Source: an uncultured virus (IMG/VR IMGVR_UViG_3300042191_000126) (Duplodnaviria > Heunggongvirae > Uroviricota > Caudoviricetes). Taken from it: a stretch of 64,000 nt of DNA. Location of the stretch: the IMG/VR virus record IMGVR_UViG_3300042191_000126, one strand, 5' to 3'. Shown in pieces: positions 11,806 through 41,928 of the stretch. The translations under genes were made by a program, and so were the position numbers. Below the pieces are notes generated by a model, which was not told the origin of the DNA, made no database searches, and was given only the letters and a program-made list of their open reading frames with translations. Numbering within the stretch: the stretch's first letter is position 1; every line of letters starts with the position of its first letter.

Positions 11806-12918
11806 TTGAGCATCGAAGAGGAGCAGGGCCCCGTTCGGGTCGGACGCTTCGAGTGGGAACGGCTCATGATGATGAGCGACCTCCCCGAGCCGGACCGCTT
11901 CAAGCTGCTCGCCCTCGGCATCTTCATGAACAGCGGCGGAGACCGTATCCGGCCGGGCAACGCCGGCCTCGCCGAATTCGGCCCCCACAAGGACACCTGG
12001 AAGAAGCTCCTCCAACGGACCGTCAAAACCGGGTGGCTGACCCTCGATCAACGCGGAGGAGCGCGCCGCGGCCCCGGCGGGACCACCATCCGTAGGGCTT
12101 CGATGTACGCCGCGTCGGTGCCGCGGGAGGTCTGGGAGCGCCGCGAGGAGATCCTCAACAGTCCGCCGTTCCGAGCATTTGGCGTTGAAGGGGGCGAGTC
12201 TGTCCCGTTGAAGGGAGCGGCAGATGAGGTCTCCAGCGCTCCGAAGTTGAAGGGGGCCGTAGACGCCTCCTTCAACGGCTCTGGCCCTTCCTTGAAGAGG
12301 GTGCCTGGACGCCCCCTTCAAGGGAACGGGGAGGATTTTGAAGGGGGCGCCAACGGACCCTCTTCTAAATCCTTTGAAGGGGGCGATCAAGCCTTTGAAG
12401 GGGGTCCCCAGAGACCCCCCCATCACGTAGTTACATCACGCACCTCCTACCCCCCGGCCCCCTCGCCCGTCACCAACCTGTCGGCCGTCGAGGGAGGCGG
12501 AGGGAACCAGCAGCAAGAACAGACACCACTCGCCGCCGCTGCCGCGTTCCTCGAATCGCTGCCCGCCCCGTGGACCGTCGGCGCCAAGACCGCAGCCGAC
12601 CTCGCACCGCTGCTGCTGGAGCGCGCCACCGCAAAGGGCTGGCTCCCCAACCCCGCGCTCGTCACCAAGCTCACCGAACGGCCGCACGGCATCAGCAACT
12701 ACCCGGCAGTGCTCCGCATCCGCATCGAAGACCTGCCCAAGGCACCCACAGTGCCCACCGTGCGGCCCGCCGCAGAGAAGCCGCCTCACTGCGGCGACAT
12801 CGACTGCGACCACATCGACCGCATGCGCGAAATCGAAACCCCCGACGGCATCCGCATGAACACCCCATGCCACCAATGCCACCCCAGCCGACTCAACGGA
12901 AAGCAGCCAGCCGCATGA
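11806..12918 (+). CDS. Phage replication initiator protein
   Basis: wHTH-like N-terminus, internal repeat cluster, coupled to dnaB. Confidence 0.7.
   Translation: MSIEEEQGPVRVGRFEWERLMMMSDLPEPDRFKLLALGIFMNSGGDRIRPGNAGLAEFGPHKDTWKKLLQRTVKTGWLTLDQRGGARRGPGGTTIRRASMYAASVPREVWERREEILNSPPFRAFGVEGGESVPLKGAADEVSSAPKLKGAVDASFNGSGPSLKRVPGRPLQGNGEDFEGGANGPSSKSFEGGDQAFEGGPQRPPHHVVTSRTSYPPAPSPVTNLSAVEGGGGNQQQEQTPLAAAAAFLESLPAPWTVGAKTAADLAPLLLERATAKGWLPNPALVTKLTERPHGISNYPAVLRIRIEDLPKAPTVPTVRPAAEKPPHCGDIDCDHIDRMREIETPDGIRMNTPCHQCHPSRLNGKQPAA
12185..12404. repeat. Iteron-like TTGAAGGGGG repeats (candidate replication origin)
   Basis: Copies at 12185, 12208, 12247, 12292, 12338, 12374, 12395 (+) and 12266, 12312 (-), some with a mismatch. 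Confidence 0.8.
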
Positions 12919-19572: not shown

Positions 19573-20657
19573 CCGACAGCCCCGCCGCCGAGCTGCGCGC
19601 CGCAGCCCAGCGGCTCACCCTGACCGGCGCCCGCATCCTCGTCGCACCACGCCTCGTACAGCCGCTCGCCGACTGGCTCACCGGCATAGAGATCAGCGAG
19701 CACGCCCCCATGGACGATGAGATCCGCCACGCCCTCACCGTGGCCCGCGCCATCCTCGACAATGCCCCGCCAGAGGGCCCCACGCCGCCCCAGGAGCCCC
19801 GCAGCGCCTCGGACGCATCATCCGATGAGCAGACCGCTCCCAGGCCGTCAGACGGACACAGGAGCGATCCCGCCGAAGAAACCCCCGCCTACACCTGGGC
19901 CCAAGTCATCGACACCATCGACCGGGGCCGGACCATCCGCATCCCCGGGATCCACTATCGCAACGGCGGTGAAGAGGAGCGGGCCGTCATAGTGTCCCGC
20001 GAGGACCTGCCGGTGCTGCGCGCAATGCTCAACGACGCAGACGACACAGCCCCGGCCGCCGAACTACGCGGTCCCTGCCCGGGCTTCCCGGACACCTGCC
20101 CGAACCTAGTCCCCGTGGCCCCAACGCCGTATCACGGCAGCGGCATCAGATGCGGCTGCGACGAGGCCCCGCTCCGCAAGCGGTACGCGGCAGCCATCCG
20201 CGACGCCGCCTGCACCGGCACCTGCGGCCTGACCGAAGCGGAATGCTCCCAACACCGCATCCAGCCCGTGGTCTGGCACCACGGGACCATGGCCGAAGTT
20301 TCCGGAACACCGGAAATGCTCGCCGACGCAGTCCTCACGGTCCGCGACCGCACCATGCAGCTGCTGCGGTCGGACCTGAAATGGAGCCAGAACAACCTCG
20401 CGGAAGCCGACGCGGCCGCCCTCGACGCCACCACCCCAGCCGAGCGGCCCGGACGTCCGGATCCGGTTGAGTGCGAGCACGAAGCAGCCCTCGAGCGGAC
20501 CCCAACCGCCGCTGCCATCGCCGACGTCCGTGCCCTGCACTACCCAATCGCCGGACCCGGACCACGCAGTTGGTGTGTCACCTGCGGAGGCGGCTACCCC
20601 TGCCCCACCCGCGAAGCCCTCGACCAACCGGCCGACACCACCACGGAGGACCAGTGA
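19569..20657 (+). CDS. Mosaic hypothetical protein with Cys clusters
   Basis: GAGGAG RBS; C-terminal H...CVTC...YPCPT. Confidence 0.65.
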   Translation: MTDSPAAELRAAAQRLTLTGARILVAPRLVQPLADWLTGIEISEHAPMDDEIRHALTVARAILDNAPPEGPTPPQEPRSASDASSDEQTAPRPSDGHRSDPAEETPAYTWAQVIDTIDRGRTIRIPGIHYRNGGEEERAVIVSREDLPVLRAMLNDADDTAPAAELRGPCPGFPDTCPNLVPVAPTPYHGSGIRCGCDEAPLRKRYAAAIRDAACTGTCGLTEAECSQHRIQPVVWHHGTMAEVSGTPEMLADAVLTVRDRTMQLLRSDLKWSQNNLAEADAAALDATTPAERPGRPDPVECEHEAALERTPTAAAIADVRALHYPIAGPGPRSWCVTCGGGYPCPTREALDQPADTTTEDQ

Positions 20658-21070
20658 GCAGCACCTACCGCATCCTCTGCCTCTCCCACGACCCCGCCAC
20701 CGACCACGGCGAATACCACACCCACCACGACGCCGAGGCCGCCATCGCCACCGGCATCACCGGACACCCGCACTGCGACCTGATGATCGGCCGCTACTCC
20801 TACCCACTCGTCGAACTCGGCTGCCCAGCCAGCCACCACCAGCCCGCGCAGCTCCGCCCCAGCGTGCTCCGCTGCTACCACAGCGGCACCCAGTGGACCG
20901 ACACGGACTGGCTGCGGCTGCTCGCCGCCGCCTACCAGTCGAGTGATCCGGACGTACGCAAAGCAGCCACGGACGGGCGGCATGGGTGCCTGCCGTGGGA
21001 GCGCCTACGGCGCCTGCGTGACGAACTCGGCATCACCACCAGCCCCATCCTCAAGCCGAAGGAGCACTGA
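20654..21070 (+). CDS. Hypothetical Cys/His-rich protein
   Basis: SSTYRILCLSHDPA...HPHCDLMIGRYSYPL. Confidence 0.7.
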   Translation: MSSTYRILCLSHDPATDHGEYHTHHDAEAAIATGITGHPHCDLMIGRYSYPLVELGCPASHHQPAQLRPSVLRCYHSGTQWTDTDWLRLLAAAYQSSDPDVRKAATDGRHGCLPWERLRRLRDELGITTSPILKPKEH

Positions 21071-31253: not shown

Positions 31254-31583
31254 TCACCCGGCCGACGGCCCGTCGGCCTTCCTCGCGGCCCGCCTCGCGG
31301 CATCCTGCTTTCGGCGCTCCCACCCGCTCAGCCCTTGCCCGATCTGCTGCGCACGGGCAGGCGTGATACTGCCGATGATGTCGGCGATCTCCTTCCAGGA
31401 CTTGCCTTGCGTCCGGAGCGCCTGGACGCGGCGCTGCCGCAACGCCCGCAGCCGCTTCTGGTACTCGGGCCAGACTTTCAGGGCCTCCGAAACTTCAGCA
31501 GTGCACCGCTCGTCGTCCTCGATGGCCTCCAGTGCCTCGATGGCCTCCAAGAGCCGCCTCCTCTCCTCAGACTCGATTGTCAC
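31254..31583 (-). CDS. HTH regulator divergent from the transfer-like operon
   Basis: GKSWKEIADIIGSITPARAQQI. Confidence 0.75.
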   Translation of the reverse strand: MTIESEERRRLLEAIEALEAIEDDERCTAEVSEALKVWPEYQKRLRALRQRRVQALRTQGKSWKEIADIIGSITPARAQQIGQGLSGWERRKQDAARRAARKADGPSAG

Positions 31584-33248: not shown

Positions 33249-33494
33249 ATGCGACACCACCCCAACCGACTCCTCCAACGCCTCCTCGCCGCCGCCCTCA
33301 TCACCCTCGCCGCCATGCACCCAGGCGCCGTCACCACCATCGCCCGCCTCGCCGCTGGCCTCATCCTCGCCACCGTCAACGGCATCACCCACGCCGCCAC
33401 CGAACAACCCGCCGCAGCCCTCCTCACCGCCGGCGCCCTCTACATCGCACACCAAGCCCGCACCACCCGCCGCCCAGCCCGAACCCGCCACTAA
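33249..33494 (+). CDS. Small hydrophobic membrane protein (Spd-like)
   Basis: Two to three hydrophobic segments; GAGAGG RBS. Confidence 0.65.
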   Translation: MRHHPNRLLQRLLAAALITLAAMHPGAVTTIARLAAGLILATVNGITHAATEQPAAALLTAGALYIAHQARTTRRPARTRH

Positions 33495-33508: not shown

Positions 33509-34390
33509 ATGCCCCAGCCCACCATCCGCCCCGTCACCCGCAACGGCCGCACCCACTACGTCGAAGAACCCGGCAAGCTCCCACCCCTCACCCTCGACGA
33601 AAAGATCATGCGCGCTGTCGGGGTCGCCACCGCACTCGTCGTCACCGGAGCCCTCCTCTGGTCCACCGTCAGCGTCGGCGCCATGCTCGATGCCGTCGCA
33701 CCCACCTGGGCGGCCTACATGATTGCCGCCGTATTCGACCTGGCGTGGATCGTCGCCATGGCAACTGAGTACGTCCTGCGGTTCGAACCCGTCCGCCAGA
33801 AGGTCCCCAAGACCCTCGGCTGGGGAGCCCTACTCGTGTCGATGGCAGCGATCTTTGCGCACGGCGCGCTCCTCAGCTCCCCCTGGATCGGAGCATTCGG
33901 AGCCGTCGTCTCCGCACTCGCCAAAGGACTTTGGTGGCTCACCATGTACGCCACCAGCCGACGCCTGGACCAGGACACACAAGCATGGCTGAACCTCGAA
34001 CTCGGCGAGGTCCACGCCCGCCGAGCCGAGCAGATGGCCCTCGCGCGAGTGGAGAGAGAACGCGTCCGCTACACACTGAACCGCCCAGCGGACACTGTCC
34101 ACACCGTTGTCCGGGACAGTCCGGACAGGGCATCCGGACGTCCGGACGAATATCCGGACGCCGCACCGGACACGTCCGGACGCAAGCCACTGGCCAGCCA
34201 GGACACCCGTCCGGACCCACTCCGGGAGATCGCGGACGACGCCGTCGGCCCGTCCGACCTTGTCCGTGCCCTGTCCGGACACGGCCTCCGCGATAACGAC
34301 CTCGTGAAAACCGCTACACGCCTGCGCCCGGATATGAACGCAGACAGCATCCGCCGTACCGCGAAGCGCATCACCGGCCCCTACCTGTAA
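33509..34390 (+). CDS. SpdB-like multi-TM protein with coiled coil and C-terminal HTH-like end
   Basis: About four TM helices (AAYMIAAVFDLAW), charged helix, Pro/Asp linker, MNADSIRRTAKR. Confidence 0.65.
   Translation: MPQPTIRPVTRNGRTHYVEEPGKLPPLTLDEKIMRAVGVATALVVTGALLWSTVSVGAMLDAVAPTWAAYMIAAVFDLAWIVAMATEYVLRFEPVRQKVPKTLGWGALLVSMAAIFAHGALLSSPWIGAFGAVVSALAKGLWWLTMYATSRRLDQDTQAWLNLELGEVHARRAEQMALARVERERVRYTLNRPADTVHTVVRDSPDRASGRPDEYPDAAPDTSGRKPLASQDTRPDPLREIADDAVGPSDLVRALSGHGLRDNDLVKTATRLRPDMNADSIRRTAKRITGPYL
34120..34280. repeat. TCCGGAC repeat cluster
   Basis: Exact copies at 34120, 34133, 34141, 34153, 34175, 34210, 34274; two more at 34893 and 34903. Confidence 0.8.
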
Positions 34391-34452
34391 GCCGCCCGCC
34401 CTCTGGCCCCCGGCACCCAGCGGGGGCCGCGCCGCCCACCGGAGCCACCACC

Positions 34453-36219
34453 GTGAAGTTCACCCGCGCCGACCTCGCCACCACTCTCGTCCTGCCCAGC
34501 CTCGTCTCCGCCGCCGCCCTCGCCGCGGACATGCAGTACGGCACCCACGCCGCCGCCGCCGAACTCGTCACTGTCATCGCGTCCGGTTCCCTGTCGTGGA
34601 CGTCGTTCTCCAGGAAGTGGCCCGGCAGTCTCTCCTGGTCCGCCATGGGCGCGGCCGGAATGTTCACGCAGGCGTGGGTAACCACCGCCATCGGAGGCGG
34701 AGCAACGCTCTACGCCTGGCTCGCCGCCGCCGCGGCCACCGGCGCAGCACGGGGCGTATACCGGCACCACACCCGCCACGACCACATGAAACTGAGCATG
34801 GAGGCCGTGAAGTTGCAGACCGCGCTCGTCGGCCAGCAGATCCGACAGCAGCAACTCGCCAAACTCACCGCCCAGGACACTTCCCCAGCGGGTCCGGACC
34901 TGTCCGGACGCACCCCGGAAGAGACCCGGATGAGGACCGTCATCCACACGCTGTTCGCCGCTGAACTGCCCGGATGCACCGTCGAACGCACCCGGACAGG
35001 CTGGACAGCCGTCCTCGACCTGCCCGTAAACCTCGACCGGAACAAACTCCGAACCGCCTGGCCCAAGGTCGCGTCCGGCATGGGCGTGGCTGGGGAATTC
35101 GTCCTCGGCGATGGGGCTCTCACGAACCAGCTCGTGGCCCGGTTCGTCGACGGTGACCCGCTCTCCGCTGTTGTCCCCTACACGCGGCAGACCGCCGGCC
35201 GGTTCACTGACCCGGTCCATCTCGGCATAGACCGGTTCCTGAACCCGGTCACCGTCGAACTGGCCTACGCCCACACCCTGATCGCTGGGTCGTCGAAGTT
35301 CGGCAAGTCCACGATCGGCAGGTCGATCGTCATCCAGCTTGCGGACCGCCCGGACACCGTGGTCTACGGCATGGACCTCAAGCCCGGAGCGCCCGAGATG
35401 ACCCCGCTCAGGCCGATCCTTCAAGACGTCGCCGAGACCGCCGAGCAGGCCCACACGATGCTGGACTGGCTGAAGGCCGAGCTCACCGAACGCGGCAACA
35501 TCCTCGCCAAAGCAGGGGACCAGGAGTGGGACCCCGCCAAACACGGCCGGCCCGCACTGTGGGTGGTCATCGATGAGCTCGCCGAACTGGTGAGGCAGGC
35601 CGACGTCGGCGAGTGGAAGAAGGACCCGGCGTCGAAGAAGATGGAGTCCCTGCTCGCGCTGGCGAGGTTCGCGGCAATGCAGTTCATCGCCATGACGCAG
35701 CAGCCCTCCCGGAAGGTTTTCGGCGGGACAACGGACGCCCGTGGGAACTACTCGGTGCGCCTGTCCACACGCATGGCTGACCGGGATCACCGCCGGTTCG
35801 TGTTCGGCACCACCCCAGGCTGGGAGCCCGGCGACCTGGACGCCCCGGGGAAGTTCTTGCTCCAGTCGCCGGATCACCAGCAGCCGCAGCCGTACAAGGG
35901 CATGTGGCTGACGAAGGACGAGTTCACTGCCGAGGTCGCCCGGATCGGCCGTGAGACGGCGAAGGCCCCGGTGGGGAAGCGGCTGGTGCTGCCTGTGCCG
36001 GGTGGGACGAACCAGGAGAAGGTGCGGGCAGCGCTGCTCAAGTACGGGAACATGACCCGCCGTGAACTGGAGGCCGCGACCGAACTGGAGGAACGGCAGG
36101 TACTGAAGGCGATAGAAGGCCTGAAGCCGGAGGCTGAGCGCACCGACGCTGGAACGTGGCGATTGGTGCCTGTGGACGCGTGGGAGGCGCAGGCGGTGTC
36201 TGTCTCTACAGACCGGTGA
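34453..36219 (+). CDS. FtsK/SpoIIIE-family DNA translocase, TraB-like
   Basis: N-terminal TMs; Walker A IAGSSKFGKST, GMDLK, Walker B VVIDELAEL, MTQQP; C-terminal wHTH MTRRELEAATEL. Confidence 0.88.
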   Translation: MKFTRADLATTLVLPSLVSAAALAADMQYGTHAAAAELVTVIASGSLSWTSFSRKWPGSLSWSAMGAAGMFTQAWVTTAIGGGATLYAWLAAAAATGAARGVYRHHTRHDHMKLSMEAVKLQTALVGQQIRQQQLAKLTAQDTSPAGPDLSGRTPEETRMRTVIHTLFAAELPGCTVERTRTGWTAVLDLPVNLDRNKLRTAWPKVASGMGVAGEFVLGDGALTNQLVARFVDGDPLSAVVPYTRQTAGRFTDPVHLGIDRFLNPVTVELAYAHTLIAGSSKFGKSTIGRSIVIQLADRPDTVVYGMDLKPGAPEMTPLRPILQDVAETAEQAHTMLDWLKAELTERGNILAKAGDQEWDPAKHGRPALWVVIDELAELVRQADVGEWKKDPASKKMESLLALARFAAMQFIAMTQQPSRKVFGGTTDARGNYSVRLSTRMADRDHRRFVFGTTPGWEPGDLDAPGKFLLQSPDHQQPQPYKGMWLTKDEFTAEVARIGRETAKAPVGKRLVLPVPGGTNQEKVRAALLKYGNMTRRELEAATELEERQVLKAIEGLKPEAERTDAGTWRLVPVDAWEAQAVSVSTDR

Positions 36220-36571
36220 ACGTGCAGGTCGGGGAGATTGCGCGGGGTCCCTTAGGGGGTCCCGCGCAGGGCTGTGAGGGGTCCGGAAAGCTGCTCGCTG
36301 CCGGACCCTTCGGGGGACCGTGTTCAGGCTGGCGTGCAGAGCAGTCACTACGTCTGTAGTTGACAAAGGTGGCGTCAGTGTCCCACCGTAGGGCTGCGCG
36401 TTCTTAACGCGCCCAAAAACCGACCACTCGGCCCCCTGCCAACCCGTCCCGGCAGGGGGCCGCAGTGCGTCACAAGGCCATTCGCGGTGGCGGATGGGGT
36501 GGTGGGCAGCCAGCCGCCCGGGGACCCCAAGCCCCGGGCGGCAACCACACACCTTGAGGGGAGGCGCGATC

Positions 36572-37102
36572 GTGGCCAACCCCGGCTACAACCCCAACCA
36601 GGATGCCCGCGACGGCTTCGGCCGCTACGCCCGCACCCTCGACACCGCCCAGCGCGACGCCCAGGCCGCCCGCCTCGCCACCCAAGGCCGCACCTACCAG
36701 CAGATCGCCGACGAGCTCGGCATCAGCAACAAAGGCGACGCGTGGCGCGCCGTGCAACGCGCCCGTCAGGCCGCTATCCAGCCCGCCGGCGAGGAGCTCA
36801 TCGCCACCGAGGCCGCCGAGCTCGACACCCTCTATGCCGAGGTCATGGAGATCCTGGCCCGCGACCACGTGATGGTCTCCCACGGCCGGATCGTGTACGG
36901 CGACGACGGGGAACCGCTCCTCGACTACGGGCCCAAACTGCAGGCGATAGACCGCGCGGTGAAAATCCGCGAGTCCTACCGGAAACTACGCGGCGTCGAC
37001 GCGCCGTCCCGCGTCTCTGTGGACGCCGAGCGGCTCGGCACCGAGATCGCCGACCTCCTCAGCTCTCTCGGAGGCAGCAGTGACGACGGCCCCGGAGACT
37101 GA
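36572..37102 (+). CDS. Terminase small subunit (HTH)
   Basis: GRTYQQIADELGIS; directly upstream of large subunit; GGGAGG RBS. Confidence 0.8.
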   Translation: MANPGYNPNQDARDGFGRYARTLDTAQRDAQAARLATQGRTYQQIADELGISNKGDAWRAVQRARQAAIQPAGEELIATEAAELDTLYAEVMEILARDHVMVSHGRIVYGDDGEPLLDYGPKLQAIDRAVKIRESYRKLRGVDAPSRVSVDAERLGTEIADLLSSLGGSSDDGPGD

Positions 37103-39665
37103 GCGGATCCGCCAGCAGATCGAGCAGCTGGTCCGCGCCGGTGACGCTGCGCGGTTGCGGGACATCCGCGACCAACTGAAGTCGGCTGTTGATCGCAGGA
37201 ACCTCGGCGAGCGGTCCGCGCGCTACTCCGGTGACCCGGTGCGGTGGGTACGGGAACGCCTCCGCCAGGTGGTGTGGTCGAAGCAGGGCGAGATCATGCG
37301 CAGCGTGCGGGACCACCGCCGCACTGCGGTAAGATCTGGGCATGGAGTCGGTAAGGCATTGAGCCTCAACACAGACCTGCCCACCCCAACGGGGTGGACC
37401 ACCATGGCCGAGGTCGAGCCGGGCGACATGCTCCTCGACGAACACGGACGGCCCGTCAAGGTGCTCGCCGTGTCCCCTGTTCACCAGCGAGACACTTTCG
37501 AGGTCGTCTTCGATGACGGCTCAGTGGTCGTGGCATCCGATGATCACAAGTGGCAAGTGCTGGACTTCTACGCCCGCAAGAGGGCACGCAATCTCCGCAG
37601 CTACTACGGCGATGCCGTGCCTACCGACTGGAGAGACGCGTGGGCCCTTTCGGAGACTCGCACCACCCGTGAGCTCGCGGAATCGCTTCGCACCACGGCC
37701 GGCACCAAGGGCGGCCAGCTCCGGTGGGCTGTCCCGACCACCAAGCCCCTCGTCGGCGAGCCCTGCGAACTCCCCGTTCCGCCATACACATTGGGCGCAT
37801 GGCTTGGTGATGGCGAGACAGCGGAAGCAAGGATCACCGTGGCGCACGAAGACGCGCCGCACCTGCTCGCCCAGTTCTCAGCTGAGGGCGTTCAGTTCCG
37901 TGAGATTCCGTCACGACGCCGTGAGACCACGACGGCCTACGCAATGATCAACGGGACCAGAGTCGCTCTTCGGAAGATGGGAGTGCTGGGCAACAAGCAC
38001 GTCCCAGCGCAGTACTTGCGCGCCGACGAGGAAACCCGGATGGCGCTGCTCGCGGGGATCATGGACACCGACGGGTTCATCCAATCCAACGGGTCTGTGG
38101 CCCAACTCGACATCACCTGCAAGCCGATCGCCGACGCCGTCGAGGAACTGGCGGCGTCCTTCGGGTGGAAGGTGCGTCGGGCCACCAAGCGTGCCACGTA
38201 CTACGGCAAGGACTGCGGGATCGTTTACCGGGTCTCATTCCGCCCGGACCTTCAGGTCTTCCGGCTACCGCGCAAGGCCGCCAAGCTCAGCTTGGACGGC
38301 ACCGCGCAGCGATCCCGGCATACGATGCGGACCATCGTGGACGTCCGGCCAGTGGCACCGGTGCCAGTCAAATGCGTCGCGGTGGACTCGCTAACGTCGC
38401 TGTACCTCGCCGGGCGGGGATTCATCCCCACTCACAACAGCCACGTCGCGTCCTTGGTTGCATGCTGGTGGCTCGACACCCACCCGCCCGGCGAGGCCTT
38501 CGTCGTCACCACCGCACCCACCTACTCCCAGGTGCGGGCGATTCTGTGGCGGTACATCCGCCGCAACCACAAAGCCGGGCAACTTGCCGGCCGGGTCAAT
38601 CAGACCGAGTGGCACATCGACGATGAGATGGTCGCGTTCGGCCGCAAGCCGGCGGACCACGACGAGTCCGCGTTCCAGGGCATCCACGCCCGGTACGTGC
38701 TGGTCATCCTCGACGAGGCATGCGGCATCCCCGAACAACTGTGGGTCGCAGCCGACGCGCTGACGACCAACGCCGACTGCCGGCTGCTCGCTATCGGCAA
38801 TCCGGATTCGCCCGCGAGCCACTTCAGACGGGTCTGCCAGCCCGGTTCCGGCTGGCACGTCATGGGTATCAGCGCGTTCGACTCGCCGAACCTCACGGGC
38901 GAGGACGTACCGGACAAGGTCGCGCTCGCCCTGGTTGGCGCCGAGTGGGTCGAGGAGAAGCGCCGCGAGTGGGGCGAGGACAATCCGCTCTACCGCAGCA
39001 AGGTCCTGGGGGAGTTCTCCGCTGACTCGCCGAATCAGGTCGTGCGCCAGTCCGACATCTCGGCGTGCCGGATCCGGTCCGATACCCGCCCTGCGCCCGA
39101 TGATTTGCTTCCCGTCGAGCTCGGTGTGGATGTCGGTGGCGGCGGGGACGAGACCGTCATTCGTGAGCGGCGCGGTGTGCGTGCCGGGCGTGAGTGGCGG
39201 GCGCACACGGACCGGCCGGAGAAGATCGCACCGATGGTTCTTGCGGCGATCCGGGAGACCGGCGCGACCGCGGTGAAGGTGGACTCGATCGGCGTCGGGT
39301 TCGGTGTGATCGGCGAGCTCCGCAACGCCGCAGCCCGCGGCGAACACACGGCGCATATCCGCGGCGTGAACGTCGGCGAGAAGGCCAGCCGCCCGGACAA
39401 GTTCGTCAACCTCCGCGCCGAGATCTGGTGGGAGATCGGCCGCGGCCTGTCCGAACGCCGCGGCTGGGACCTCTCCAGCATGGACAACGCGGACACCACC
39501 ATCGCGCAGCTCCTGGAGCCGCGGTGGGACGCCGACCCGGCCGGCCGGATCCGGGTGGAGAAGAAAGACGAAGTGATCAAGCGGCTCGGCAGAAGTCCGG
39601 ACAATGCGGACGCCTTGCTCTTGGCCTACTACAGCGCTGGCCGCACCCGGGTCCGCTGGCTCTAA
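37080..39665 (+). CDS. terL: Terminase large subunit containing an intein
   Basis: SGHGVGK|S Walker A, ILDEACG, IGNP, LGVDVGGGG, SPDNADAL. Confidence 0.93.
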   Translation: MTTAPETERIRQQIEQLVRAGDAARLRDIRDQLKSAVDRRNLGERSARYSGDPVRWVRERLRQVVWSKQGEIMRSVRDHRRTAVRSGHGVGKALSLNTDLPTPTGWTTMAEVEPGDMLLDEHGRPVKVLAVSPVHQRDTFEVVFDDGSVVVASDDHKWQVLDFYARKRARNLRSYYGDAVPTDWRDAWALSETRTTRELAESLRTTAGTKGGQLRWAVPTTKPLVGEPCELPVPPYTLGAWLGDGETAEARITVAHEDAPHLLAQFSAEGVQFREIPSRRRETTTAYAMINGTRVALRKMGVLGNKHVPAQYLRADEETRMALLAGIMDTDGFIQSNGSVAQLDITCKPIADAVEELAASFGWKVRRATKRATYYGKDCGIVYRVSFRPDLQVFRLPRKAAKLSLDGTAQRSRHTMRTIVDVRPVAPVPVKCVAVDSLTSLYLAGRGFIPTHNSHVASLVACWWLDTHPPGEAFVVTTAPTYSQVRAILWRYIRRNHKAGQLAGRVNQTEWHIDDEMVAFGRKPADHDESAFQGIHARYVLVILDEACGIPEQLWVAADALTTNADCRLLAIGNPDSPASHFRRVCQPGSGWHVMGISAFDSPNLTGEDVPDKVALALVGAEWVEEKRREWGEDNPLYRSKVLGEFSADSPNQVVRQSDISACRIRSDTRPAPDDLLPVELGVDVGGGGDETVIRERRGVRAGREWRAHTDRPEKIAPMVLAAIRETGATAVKVDSIGVGFGVIGELRNAAARGEHTAHIRGVNVGEKASRPDKFVNLRAEIWWEIGRGLSERRGWDLSSMDNADTTIAQLLEPRWDADPAGRIRVEKKDEVIKRLGRSPDNADALLLAYYSAGRTRVRWL
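37356..38438 (+). mobile_element. Class 3 intein with LAGLIDADG homing endonuclease (361 aa)
   Basis: Starts ALSLNTDLPTPTGW, ends PTHN/S; HKW, VKCVAV; LGAWLGDG and LAGIMDTDG. Confidence 0.9.
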
Positions 39666-39682
39666 CCACCGAGGAGGCGACT

Positions 39683-39862
39683 GTGAGCAGGCTCCGCAAA
39701 CTCGTCCCCCTCTGGACCCGGGCCCGCACCACCGTCCTCACCACCGCCGGTTTCGGATCGCTGACCGCCTCCGCGTGGACCGCGTGGGGCACGGCGGCCG
39801 GCCTGGCCGCAGGCGGCGTGTCGTGTCTGATCCTGGAGTTCCTCGGCGGTGATGACGGGTGA
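39683..39862 (+). CDS. Small membrane protein upstream of portal
   Basis: GAGGAGG RBS; hydrophobic. Confidence 0.7.
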   Translation: MSRLRKLVPLWTRARTTVLTTAGFGSLTASAWTAWGTAAGLAAGGVSCLILEFLGGDDG

Positions 39863-41928
39863 GGTCCCCGCTGCGCGCCATCGGCTCCCTGGTCAACCGG
39901 ACGCCGGTGCCGTACGTATCCAGCCGGGTCACCCTGGCCATGCCGTGGGCGCACAAGAGCGGCGCTGAGGCGCAGATGCGCGCCATGGGCACGGTGGGCA
40001 CCCTGTTCGCCATCGTCAACCGCACGTCGAATGCGACGGCGCTGGTCAAGTGGAAGCTATGGCGGAAGGCCGCGTCCGGCCGGGCCGAGGACCGGGTCGA
40101 GGTCACCGCGCATGCGGCGCTGGACCTGTGGAACAAGCCCAACCCCTTCATGCCCAGGCAGGAGTTCGTCGAGGGCTTTCAGCAGCATGTGGACCTGACG
40201 GGTGAGGGCTGGTGGGTCATTGCCCGCAACGGCCGTTCACCCCTGCCGCTGGAGCTGTGGCCCGTCCGGCCGGACCGTATCCAGCCCGTCCCGCACCCGA
40301 CCGATTTCATCTCCGGGTACGTGTATACCGGCCCGGGTGGGGAGCAGATCCCCCTCGACGTCAAGGACGTCATCCAGCTCCGCATGCCGAACCCGCTGGA
40401 CCCGTACCGCGGTATGGGCCCCGTGCAGTCGGTGCTGACCGACCTCGACGCCACGAAGTACTCCGCAGAGTGGAACCGGTCGTTTTTCCTCAACTCGGCG
40501 GAGCCGGGCGGGATCATCGAGGTCCCCAACGGCTTGTCAGACACGGAGTTCGACGAGCTGCGGGACCGGTGGAACGAGCAGCACCAGGGCGTCGCGAACG
40601 CACACCGCGTCGCGATCCTGGAGCACGGCACGTGGAAAGACCGCAAAATGTCCCAGAAGGACATGCAGTTCGTGCAGCTCCGCGACGCCAGCAGCAAAGT
40701 CATCCGTGAGGCGTTCGGGATCAGCAAAACCGCGATCGGCGACTTCGAGGACATCAACCGCGCAACGGCCATCGCGGCGAAAGCGTGGTTCGCGGAGCAG
40801 ATCACCATCCCCCGCCTGGAACGCATCAAGTCCGCCCTCAACAACGACCTGCTGCCGCTGTACGGCCCGGACACGGCCCGGACACTGGAGTTCGACTACG
40901 AGGACCCCGTCCCGCCGGATGCTGAGGCGCGGAACGCTGAGCTGACCGCGAAAGCCTCCGCGGCGAAGGTCTTCATCGACGCCGGGTTCGCCCCACGGTC
41001 AGTTACCGAGGCGCTGGAGCTGCCGGACATGCAGTACACCGGCACACCCGCACCGGCCCCGGCTGCACCGGCCCGCCAGGCCCCGGCCACCGCACGGCTG
41101 GACATCCACCACCACACACCCGTGGCACGCGCCCGCAGCATCCGGCCCCTGCGCGCGCAGGACAACGATGAAGCTGAAGACGACGACGAGCAGCTCGACA
41201 CCGTCCGCGAACAGCACGCCGACGCCCTCGCCCAGTTGCTCGACGACTGGGACCCGATCGCCGAGCAGCAGTACACCGAGCTCGCCGACCAGATAGAGCA
41301 GGCCGTCGACGCGGGCGACCCCGCCGCGCTGGCCGGCCTGACGGTGGACAGCGACGACGCGACACGGGTACTGCGCCTCGCACTGGGCGCCATGGCCACC
41401 ACCGCGGCCGAGCAGATGGCCGCGGAGGCCGCCGCGCAGGGCGTGAAGGTACGCCCCCCGAAAGTTGACGCCGGGTTGCGGAACGCGTTCGGGTCGGAGC
41501 TGGTGGAGATCGCCATGGCGACGGCCGCGTTCCTCGGCGCGGACATCGCAGCGTCCGCTGGGCGCGAGGCGCTGCGCCTCTTCACACCGGGCGCGGCGGG
41601 CCGTCAGGTAGCCGAGCAGGTGACCGGGTTCCTGCGCGGGCTGAAGAACTGGTTCCGCCGCGACCAACTGGCGGGAGCACTGCACCAGGCGCAGAACACC
41701 GGACGGCTCGCAACGCTGGAAGCAGCACCAACGGCCCGGTATTTCGCCAGCGAGAAGAACGACAACAACGTGTGCCCACCATGTAAAGCGATCGATGGCA
41801 CCGAGTTCACCGATCTCGCTGAAGCGCGAGCGGAGTACGCGACTGGCGGCTACCGGCTATGTGACGGCGGCATCCGGTGCCGCGGCACGGTCGTGGCCCA
41901 GTGGGATACGACAGGAGGCGGGGGCTGA
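39859..41928 (+). CDS. HK97-type portal fused to a MuF-like head morphogenesis domain
   Basis: KPNPFM...LTGEGWW...DPYRGMGP...FFLNSAEPGG; C-terminal VCPPCKAIDG...CRG. Confidence 0.88.
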   Translation: MRSPLRAIGSLVNRTPVPYVSSRVTLAMPWAHKSGAEAQMRAMGTVGTLFAIVNRTSNATALVKWKLWRKAASGRAEDRVEVTAHAALDLWNKPNPFMPRQEFVEGFQQHVDLTGEGWWVIARNGRSPLPLELWPVRPDRIQPVPHPTDFISGYVYTGPGGEQIPLDVKDVIQLRMPNPLDPYRGMGPVQSVLTDLDATKYSAEWNRSFFLNSAEPGGIIEVPNGLSDTEFDELRDRWNEQHQGVANAHRVAILEHGTWKDRKMSQKDMQFVQLRDASSKVIREAFGISKTAIGDFEDINRATAIAAKAWFAEQITIPRLERIKSALNNDLLPLYGPDTARTLEFDYEDPVPPDAEARNAELTAKASAAKVFIDAGFAPRSVTEALELPDMQYTGTPAPAPAAPARQAPATARLDIHHHTPVARARSIRPLRAQDNDEAEDDDEQLDTVREQHADALAQLLDDWDPIAEQQYTELADQIEQAVDAGDPAALAGLTVDSDDATRVLRLALGAMATTAAEQMAAEAAAQGVKVRPPKVDAGLRNAFGSELVEIAMATAAFLGADIAASAGREALRLFTPGAAGRQVAEQVTGFLRGLKNWFRRDQLAGALHQAQNTGRLATLEAAPTARYFASEKNDNNVCPPCKAIDGTEFTDLAEARAEYATGGYRLCDGGIRCRGTVVAQWDTTGGGG

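Follow-up and report, generated by a model that had tools for sequence, protein, structure and literature searches.

Which protein reads the cluster of short palindromes that lies within the coding DNA of a membrane protein gene in this phage genome, and for what purpose? The window, by which we mean the whole 64-kb stretch of DNA analysed here, is the first part of a 67,065-base virus record and encodes a tyrosine integrase, DnaB, terminase, portal, ClpP-type protease, capsid and amidase. The combination of a tyrosine integrase with DnaB-type replication makes the element look like an integrating temperate phage of the Streptomyces type; nearly all named relatives of its spdB-like gene come from Streptomyces or close kin. 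An operon directly ahead of the terminase genes comprises small ORFs, the gene for a 293-aa membrane protein and that for an FtsK/TraB translocase; in this region the following features are of concern:

31254..31583, minus strand: small divergent ORF upstream of the operon, putative regulator by position only
33249..33494, plus strand: small hydrophobic ORF of 81 aa, putative spd gene; precedes the spdB-like gene and recurs in related loci
33509..34390, plus strand: spdB-like membrane protein gene, 293 aa (ORF, AlphaFold2 model)
34109..34334, no strand: palindrome array, (C)GTCCGGAC(G), with seven exact TCCGGAC (34120-34280) and degenerate copies, in the DNA that encodes the linker and the first part of the tail domain
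34205..34387, plus strand: type-A tail domain DNA, putative array reader by co-variation; four short helices, the last ADSIRRTAKR (model pLDDT 88.7)
34453..36219, plus strand: TraB/FtsK-like DNA translocase gene, 588 aa (PF01580, E 2.8e-10), C-terminal helix ERQVLKAIEGL
34892..34909, no strand: pair of GTCCGGAC copies inside traB, where the encoded peptide is GPDLSGR

The window TraB is 27% identical to pIJ101 Tra over 362 aligned columns, the C-terminal domain included. Pfam and PHROG searches gave no match for the 81-aa ORF or for the divergent ORF, and a scan for promoters and terminators returned nothing exceeding chance. In a comparison with contigs of two DNA runs, the listed identical pieces span 34593-36600 in one run, possibly the source, and no listed piece reaches the array.

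The TCCGGAC array and its coding context

An earlier note on this DNA had reported seven copies of TCCGGAC within about 160 bp and two more inside traB, and all of them are found exactly where it placed them: on the plus strand at 34120, 34133, 34141, 34153, 34175, 34210 and 34274 (seven in 161 bp), and in traB at 34893 and 34903. Its description of several copies as palindromic holds in the form of the full palindrome GTCCGGAC for five of the seven cluster copies and for both copies in traB. The accompanying statement that the copies lie in different reading frames also holds: the seven in the window occupy two of the three frames (3 and 4 copies), and all three are used across the six loci with the same type of tail, type A, the window among them (21/9/5; consensus (C)GTCCGGAC(G)).

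Is this clustering more than a consequence of base composition and codon usage? Over both strands of the whole window TCCGGAC occurs 34 times against a mean of 20.9 in shuffled sequences, 2 of 100 of which are as high, so that the window-wide enrichment is mild. The cluster itself is far beyond chance: random placement of the contig's 42 TCCGGA never puts more than five copies into the best 160-bp window in 20,000 trials. Nor does correction for codon content remove the excess, for when codons are redrawn with the protein fixed, 0.40 copies are expected where seven are observed, and none of 20,000 draws reaches seven; the same test in the five other type-A loci gives 0, 0, 0, 1 and 12 of 20,000. 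We further observe that Pro-Asp pairs follow a T-ending codon in 20 of 35 cases in the six type-A loci, the corresponding figure for 14 other phage genes being 3 of 24. The codon-redraw excess, the mixed frames and the rare-codon use before Pro-Asp together indicate that selection acts on the DNA word and not through codon bias, which bears out the DNA-level selection proposed in the earlier note. Elsewhere in the window, the interval 20000-21000 has the second-highest counts of CGGAC and CCGGAC per kb (10 and 6), with no ordered array evident in a partial reading.

The protein that these repeats help to encode is modelled by AlphaFold2 with four long hydrophobic helices (aa 29-149), a long helix (155-187), a disordered linker (195-233) and a compact helical tail domain (237-289); the repeats encode the linker and the beginning of the tail domain. 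Pfam and PHROGs name no family for the whole protein, which matches two unannotated PHROGs only. PF27080 (SpdB_N) is absent from our Pfam scan of the window protein and 59 aligned members, and is present as a precomputed annotation on many of 115 homologues and, in the Atlas, on neighbours (46-54% of members); the family profile matches pIJ101 SpdB weakly, at 18 composition-biased bits. Type-B tails match Pfam helix-turn-helix (HTH) families, and among all tail types other than A such matches concern 16-18 of the 59 members. The type-A tail itself has no Pfam family match, and Foldseek searches with the whole model and with the tail alone gave no match at E<=0.001. VIA-align of the tail reached at best Z 5.4 (rmsd 2.3, 48 aligned), within the range of common helical arrangements; its top row, the N-terminal part of the endonuclease BsaWI, was not counted as evidence. 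Since neither Pfam nor the fold searches gave a clear match, the type-A tail is labelled a presumptive DNA-binding domain by its position and by analogy.

Homologues of the protein have a common N-terminal part and differing tails, and the amino-acid make-up of the linker shifts along with the tail. At least 14 changes of tail type fall on a fast tree built from 80 N-terminal domains, parts of which are unsure owing to long branches; one pair with identical N-terminal domains bears different tails. Eight homologues (P0028, P0033, P0036, P0046, P0047, P0051, P0100 and P0112) have a linker about 130 aa longer, most with PF10544/PF13455; one of the long-linker homologues is named as a GIY-YIG nuclease family member, suggesting a nuclease-like insert in the swapped cassette.

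Co-variation of the words with the Spd tail and with TraB

The exchange of tails makes it possible to ask which protein goes with which word. We fetched 74 loci with a 27-sequence alignment as query and assigned to each a type of Spd tail and of TraB C-terminal helix. The resulting 75 rows, window included, comprise 34 in which a tail of type A, B or C is combined with a complete traB of the clade downstream, or 31 after removal of three duplicates; the 41 excluded rows have other tails, another traB or none in the flank, or are cut off. Three tail types and three types of TraB recognition helix form seven of the nine possible combinations among the 31 loci, 13 of which, the window counted among them, have a homologue of the packaging genes of this phage within the fetched flank.

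The last 330 nt of the spd gene hold 4-7 TCCGGA in all six type-A loci and 0-1 in all 25 type-B and all six type-C loci, where other words abound instead: GGTYCR-like words in type B (7-13) and GGCTCA in type C (3-11). Among the 31 loci the mean TCCGGA count in this stretch is 5.8, 0.14 and 0.4 for tails A, B and C (n=5, 21 and 5; p 9e-5), compared with 1.3, 1.1 and 0.25 when the same loci are sorted by TraB type (p 0.77). For the intragenic A, B and C words the association is with the Spd tail (p 4e-5 to 1e-4), TraB type showing none (p 0.55-0.91); for the word within 130 bases past the traB stop it is the reverse, with an association for TraB type (p 2e-6 to 2e-4) and none for the Spd tail (p 0.28-1). 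These p values are descriptive rather than formal tests, because the words were chosen by eye from the same, related loci. Two loci separate the associations individually. In L068 the TraB C-terminus and the DNA downstream are near-identical to those of the window, and the tail is of type C, with eight GGCTCA and one TCCGGA; L037 has tail A and six TCCGGA beside a TraB only 33% identical to that of the window. Sequence comparison marks L068 as a recent mosaic relative of the window phage, 99.5% identical over 38455-40500 and 83% over 34387-37354, with a different Spd tail and a different TraB ATPase lineage.

These observations bear directly on the headline claim of the earlier note, that the TCCGGAC cluster is a clt-like locus bound by the translocase, presumably through its winged helix. 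The cluster does consist of short repeats, as known clt loci do (PMC4447253, PMC3583192); it adjoins traB and has copies inside it, and in type H loci and in L009 intragenic word clusters are likewise found near the traB 3' end, with a reader that is not assignable there. Yet the word does not follow the TraB helix in the 31 loci, L068 and L037 split it from TraB, a different repeat behind traB does follow the helix, and clt repeats are described as direct repeats while TCCGGAC is palindromic. We therefore regard this assignment as highly improbable. The alternative that the note mentioned in second place, sites for the C-terminal domain of the Spd-like protein itself, is the reading that co-variation with the tail favours.

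A more plausible clt lies 1.3 kb further on, behind traB:

36244..36320, no strand: clt candidate, three GGGGTCC(C/G) followed by two inverted copies, beginning 25 bp past the traB stop

This is the densest GGGTCC cluster in the contig. Across the window and 30 related loci three helix–word pairs can be recognized, ERQVLKAIEGL with GGGTCC(C), EKQVLDAARAL with GGGTCGG and DKQVRDAAGAL with GGGGTG, mostly as direct followed by inverted copies. For the helix types T1 (n=16), T2 (n=11) and T3 (n=4), mean counts behind traB are 3.5, 0.18 and 0 for GGGTCC/GGTCCC, 0.06, 4.0 and 0.25 for GGGTCG, and 0.25, 0.09 and 3.25 for GGGGTG. With direct and inverted short repeats adjoining the tra gene and a word that follows the TraB helix, 36244-36320 is likely the loading site of TraB and a putative clt. 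It folds as two hairpins (z -2.86), and by this prediction may double as a terminator.

The association of tail and word is not limited to the three types considered so far, as each of eight tail types (55 distinct sequences) has its own enriched word, and types A, D and E, with similar last helices, have a common TCCGGA core. For the five additional types the reader is inseparable from TraB. A simple count of top words gives a clear array in TurkishDelight gp97 (GGGGAC, 11 copies) and no clear array in pIJ101 spdB, phage SF3 gp690 or a plasmid homologue.

What, then, is the array for? In view of the codon excess, the position in a disordered linker and the co-variation with the tail rather than with TraB, we favour, at a probability of about 60%, the explanation that GTCCGGAC copies form a binding array for the C-terminal domain of the SpdB-like protein, which would tether phage DNA to the membrane transfer machine, TraB probably loading elsewhere, behind its own gene. 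The tail domain would bind the array directly and, the word being palindromic, probably as a dimer. By extension from pSVH1 SpdB2, the bound phage DNA would be held at an SpdB-type pore while TraB, bound to the repeat downstream of its gene, pumps it, allowing the DNA to spread through or between hyphae. Being neighbours, array and reader would travel as one cassette, each swap of which would re-address the element.

Distant sites inside traB and the purpose of the proposed binding

Since array and tail DNA adjoin, linkage alone accounts for part of the co-variation. Sites at a distance from the tail allow a test that escapes linkage. The type-B word is found 400-1100 bp away in traB, where a 220-codon stretch holds 19-29 copies in all 21 type-B loci against 7.6-10.4 expected. 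Two type-A loci, the window and L038, have a traB core that nests among those of type-B loci, and in this test, which rests on the two of them, the same stretch holds 11 B words in the window (8.1 expected) and nine in L038 (6.1 expected). The window keeps 7 and L038 6 of 20 consensus sites, compared with 14-20 in the B loci, from which the sites were defined with a bias in their favour; several have been lost through silent changes. The traB array follows tail type B and has largely been lost in the window phage after tail replacement.

The type-A word in traB is less clear-cut. In the same 220-codon stretch TCCGGA is in excess in all five type-A loci (2-5 against 0.4-0.8 expected), but also occurs in three of five type-C loci, and reaches z near 4 in two of 21 type-B loci. 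A simple extension of the array to the traB copies at 34893 and 34903 is made less likely by the occurrence of the word in type C; these copies may be outlying sites of the same reader, or cargo of the traB segment. A C-word array was not found in the traB of type-C loci, z exceeding 2 in one of five only (weak, L011). In type H, two further arrays of that type's own word, with 13-24 copies, lie at 1-3.5 kb from the gene end, and distant arrays of the type's own word also occur in some type D loci. In L042, L045, L070 and L072 there are three separate CTGTCC/GGACAG arrays per module, of 13-24 copies each, found 1.0-1.5 kb upstream and 2.5-3.5 kb downstream of the end of the spd gene, with one near the traB 3' end.

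The array might also be a by-product of local expansion in a low-complexity linker, or serve as an mRNA structure or host-factor site, and follow the tail only through being inherited beside it. Such an origin would be in keeping with the adjacency of array and tail DNA, with the type-C loci that have no distant array, and with the strong RNA folding of the array region (z -5.66), although the latter is expected of any palindrome cluster. It accounts poorly for copies that are dispersed, lie in different frames and need rare codons, for a B word kept far off in traB and lost where the tail is replaced, and for the distant same-word arrays of type H and some type D loci, and we consider it decidedly unlikely.

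The same binding could instead serve another purpose, with no part in transfer: the membrane-anchored tail might repress or road-block its own operon and traB, or position the excised phage circle. The array does lie within the transcribed operon just ahead of traB, unregulated traB is regarded as toxic (PMC4447253), and SpdA2 with its sps sites acts on stability and not on transfer (PMC4170104). Against this stand the distance of about 2.5 kb between the sites and the presumed promoter region, the fusion of the reader to an SpdB-type membrane domain, and the recurrence of arrays in the linkers of several module genes rather than at promoters. A purely regulatory or positioning role appears rather unlikely to us.

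A wider hypothesis may be put forward, tentatively and with the odds somewhat against it. Under this hypothesis contact transfer would be addressed by two keys, an exchangeable cassette of linker and reader in the SpdB pore protein reading an array in the coding DNA of the module and an independently exchangeable TraB helix reading clt, both shuffled between Streptomyces temperate phages. Co-resident elements would each rely on their own machine alone for loading, and a prophage might spread through and between mycelia without lysis.

Relation to known transfer systems

A Spd-type protein that reads palindromes in its own gene is already known. SpdA2 of Streptomyces lividans pIJ101 binds such palindromes in EMSA; it is a protein of 117-163 aa with an N-terminal DNA-binding region, and its 12-bp sps palindrome, in two to three copies, is conserved across plasmids (PMC4170104). 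The window gene resembles it in holding palindromes within its own coding DNA. It belongs to another protein family, however, and instead of one conserved word has an array of at least seven copies of the 8-bp GTCCGGAC, whose word changes with the tail; its product of 293 aa has four membrane helices and an exchangeable C-terminal tail.

The four membrane helices and the spd-traB operon position are those of the SpdB/SpdB2 family (SpdB_N PF27080, HTH_SpdB_C PF27079). SpdB2 of pSVH1 is reported to form an oligomeric four-helix pore in the membrane, to contact TraB and to bind DNA non-specifically, and its homologues on actinophages have been noted before (PMC4447253). Unlike the window gene, SpdB2 has no sequence-specific array described in the available parts of that paper, and pIJ101 spdB is likewise without a clear one, the tail of pIJ101 SpdB failing the type-A profile.

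Resemblance to TraB/clt (TRS) systems concerns 36244-36320, a different element from the TCCGGAC array. The FtsK-like translocase with a C-terminal winged-helix-type domain is shared with pSVH1, pJV1, pIJ101 and pWTY27, and, like TRS, the repeat adjoins the gene, contains copies in both orientations and varies with the helix to which specificity is ascribed (PMC3583192, PMC4447253). A search of the literature for GACCCGGA, which the earlier note gives as the pSVH1 word, yielded no relevant paper among the matches listed.

Searches of largely open-access literature listed no paper that pairs exchangeable SpdB tails with arrays of their own. What the present analysis adds is the two-way separation from TraB, the pairs of TraB helix and word for the clt, and the disappearance of distant sites where the tail has been swapped. 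Should SpdB-type proteins indeed read element-specific arrays in their own genes, they would provide the link that has been missing between cargo DNA and the pore used for spreading. The combinations of three tails with three TraB helices that occur in nature supply ready reader–word pairs for both proteins, making specificity testable by swaps, and with clt candidates marked on integrating phages, prophage transfer or intramycelial spread becomes testable as well.

Plasmid-phages that combine phage structural genes with a transfer module are represented in Streptomyces by elements such as pZL12, mentioned in PMC4170104 and among the references of PMC3583192. The window element likewise joins structural genes to a transfer module, and differs in its tyrosine integrase and DnaB-type replication. 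A weak LAGLIDADG/Hom_end match in the middle of the terminase large subunit (37080-39665) marks an insert that is probably an intein. Ahead of dnaB, the ORF at 11806-12918 contains, at 12185-12400, nine repeats with a TTGAAG core ((CC)CCTTCAA on the opposite strand) spaced by about 22 bp, an arrangement that looks like an iteron origin set within the gene for a phage replication initiator.
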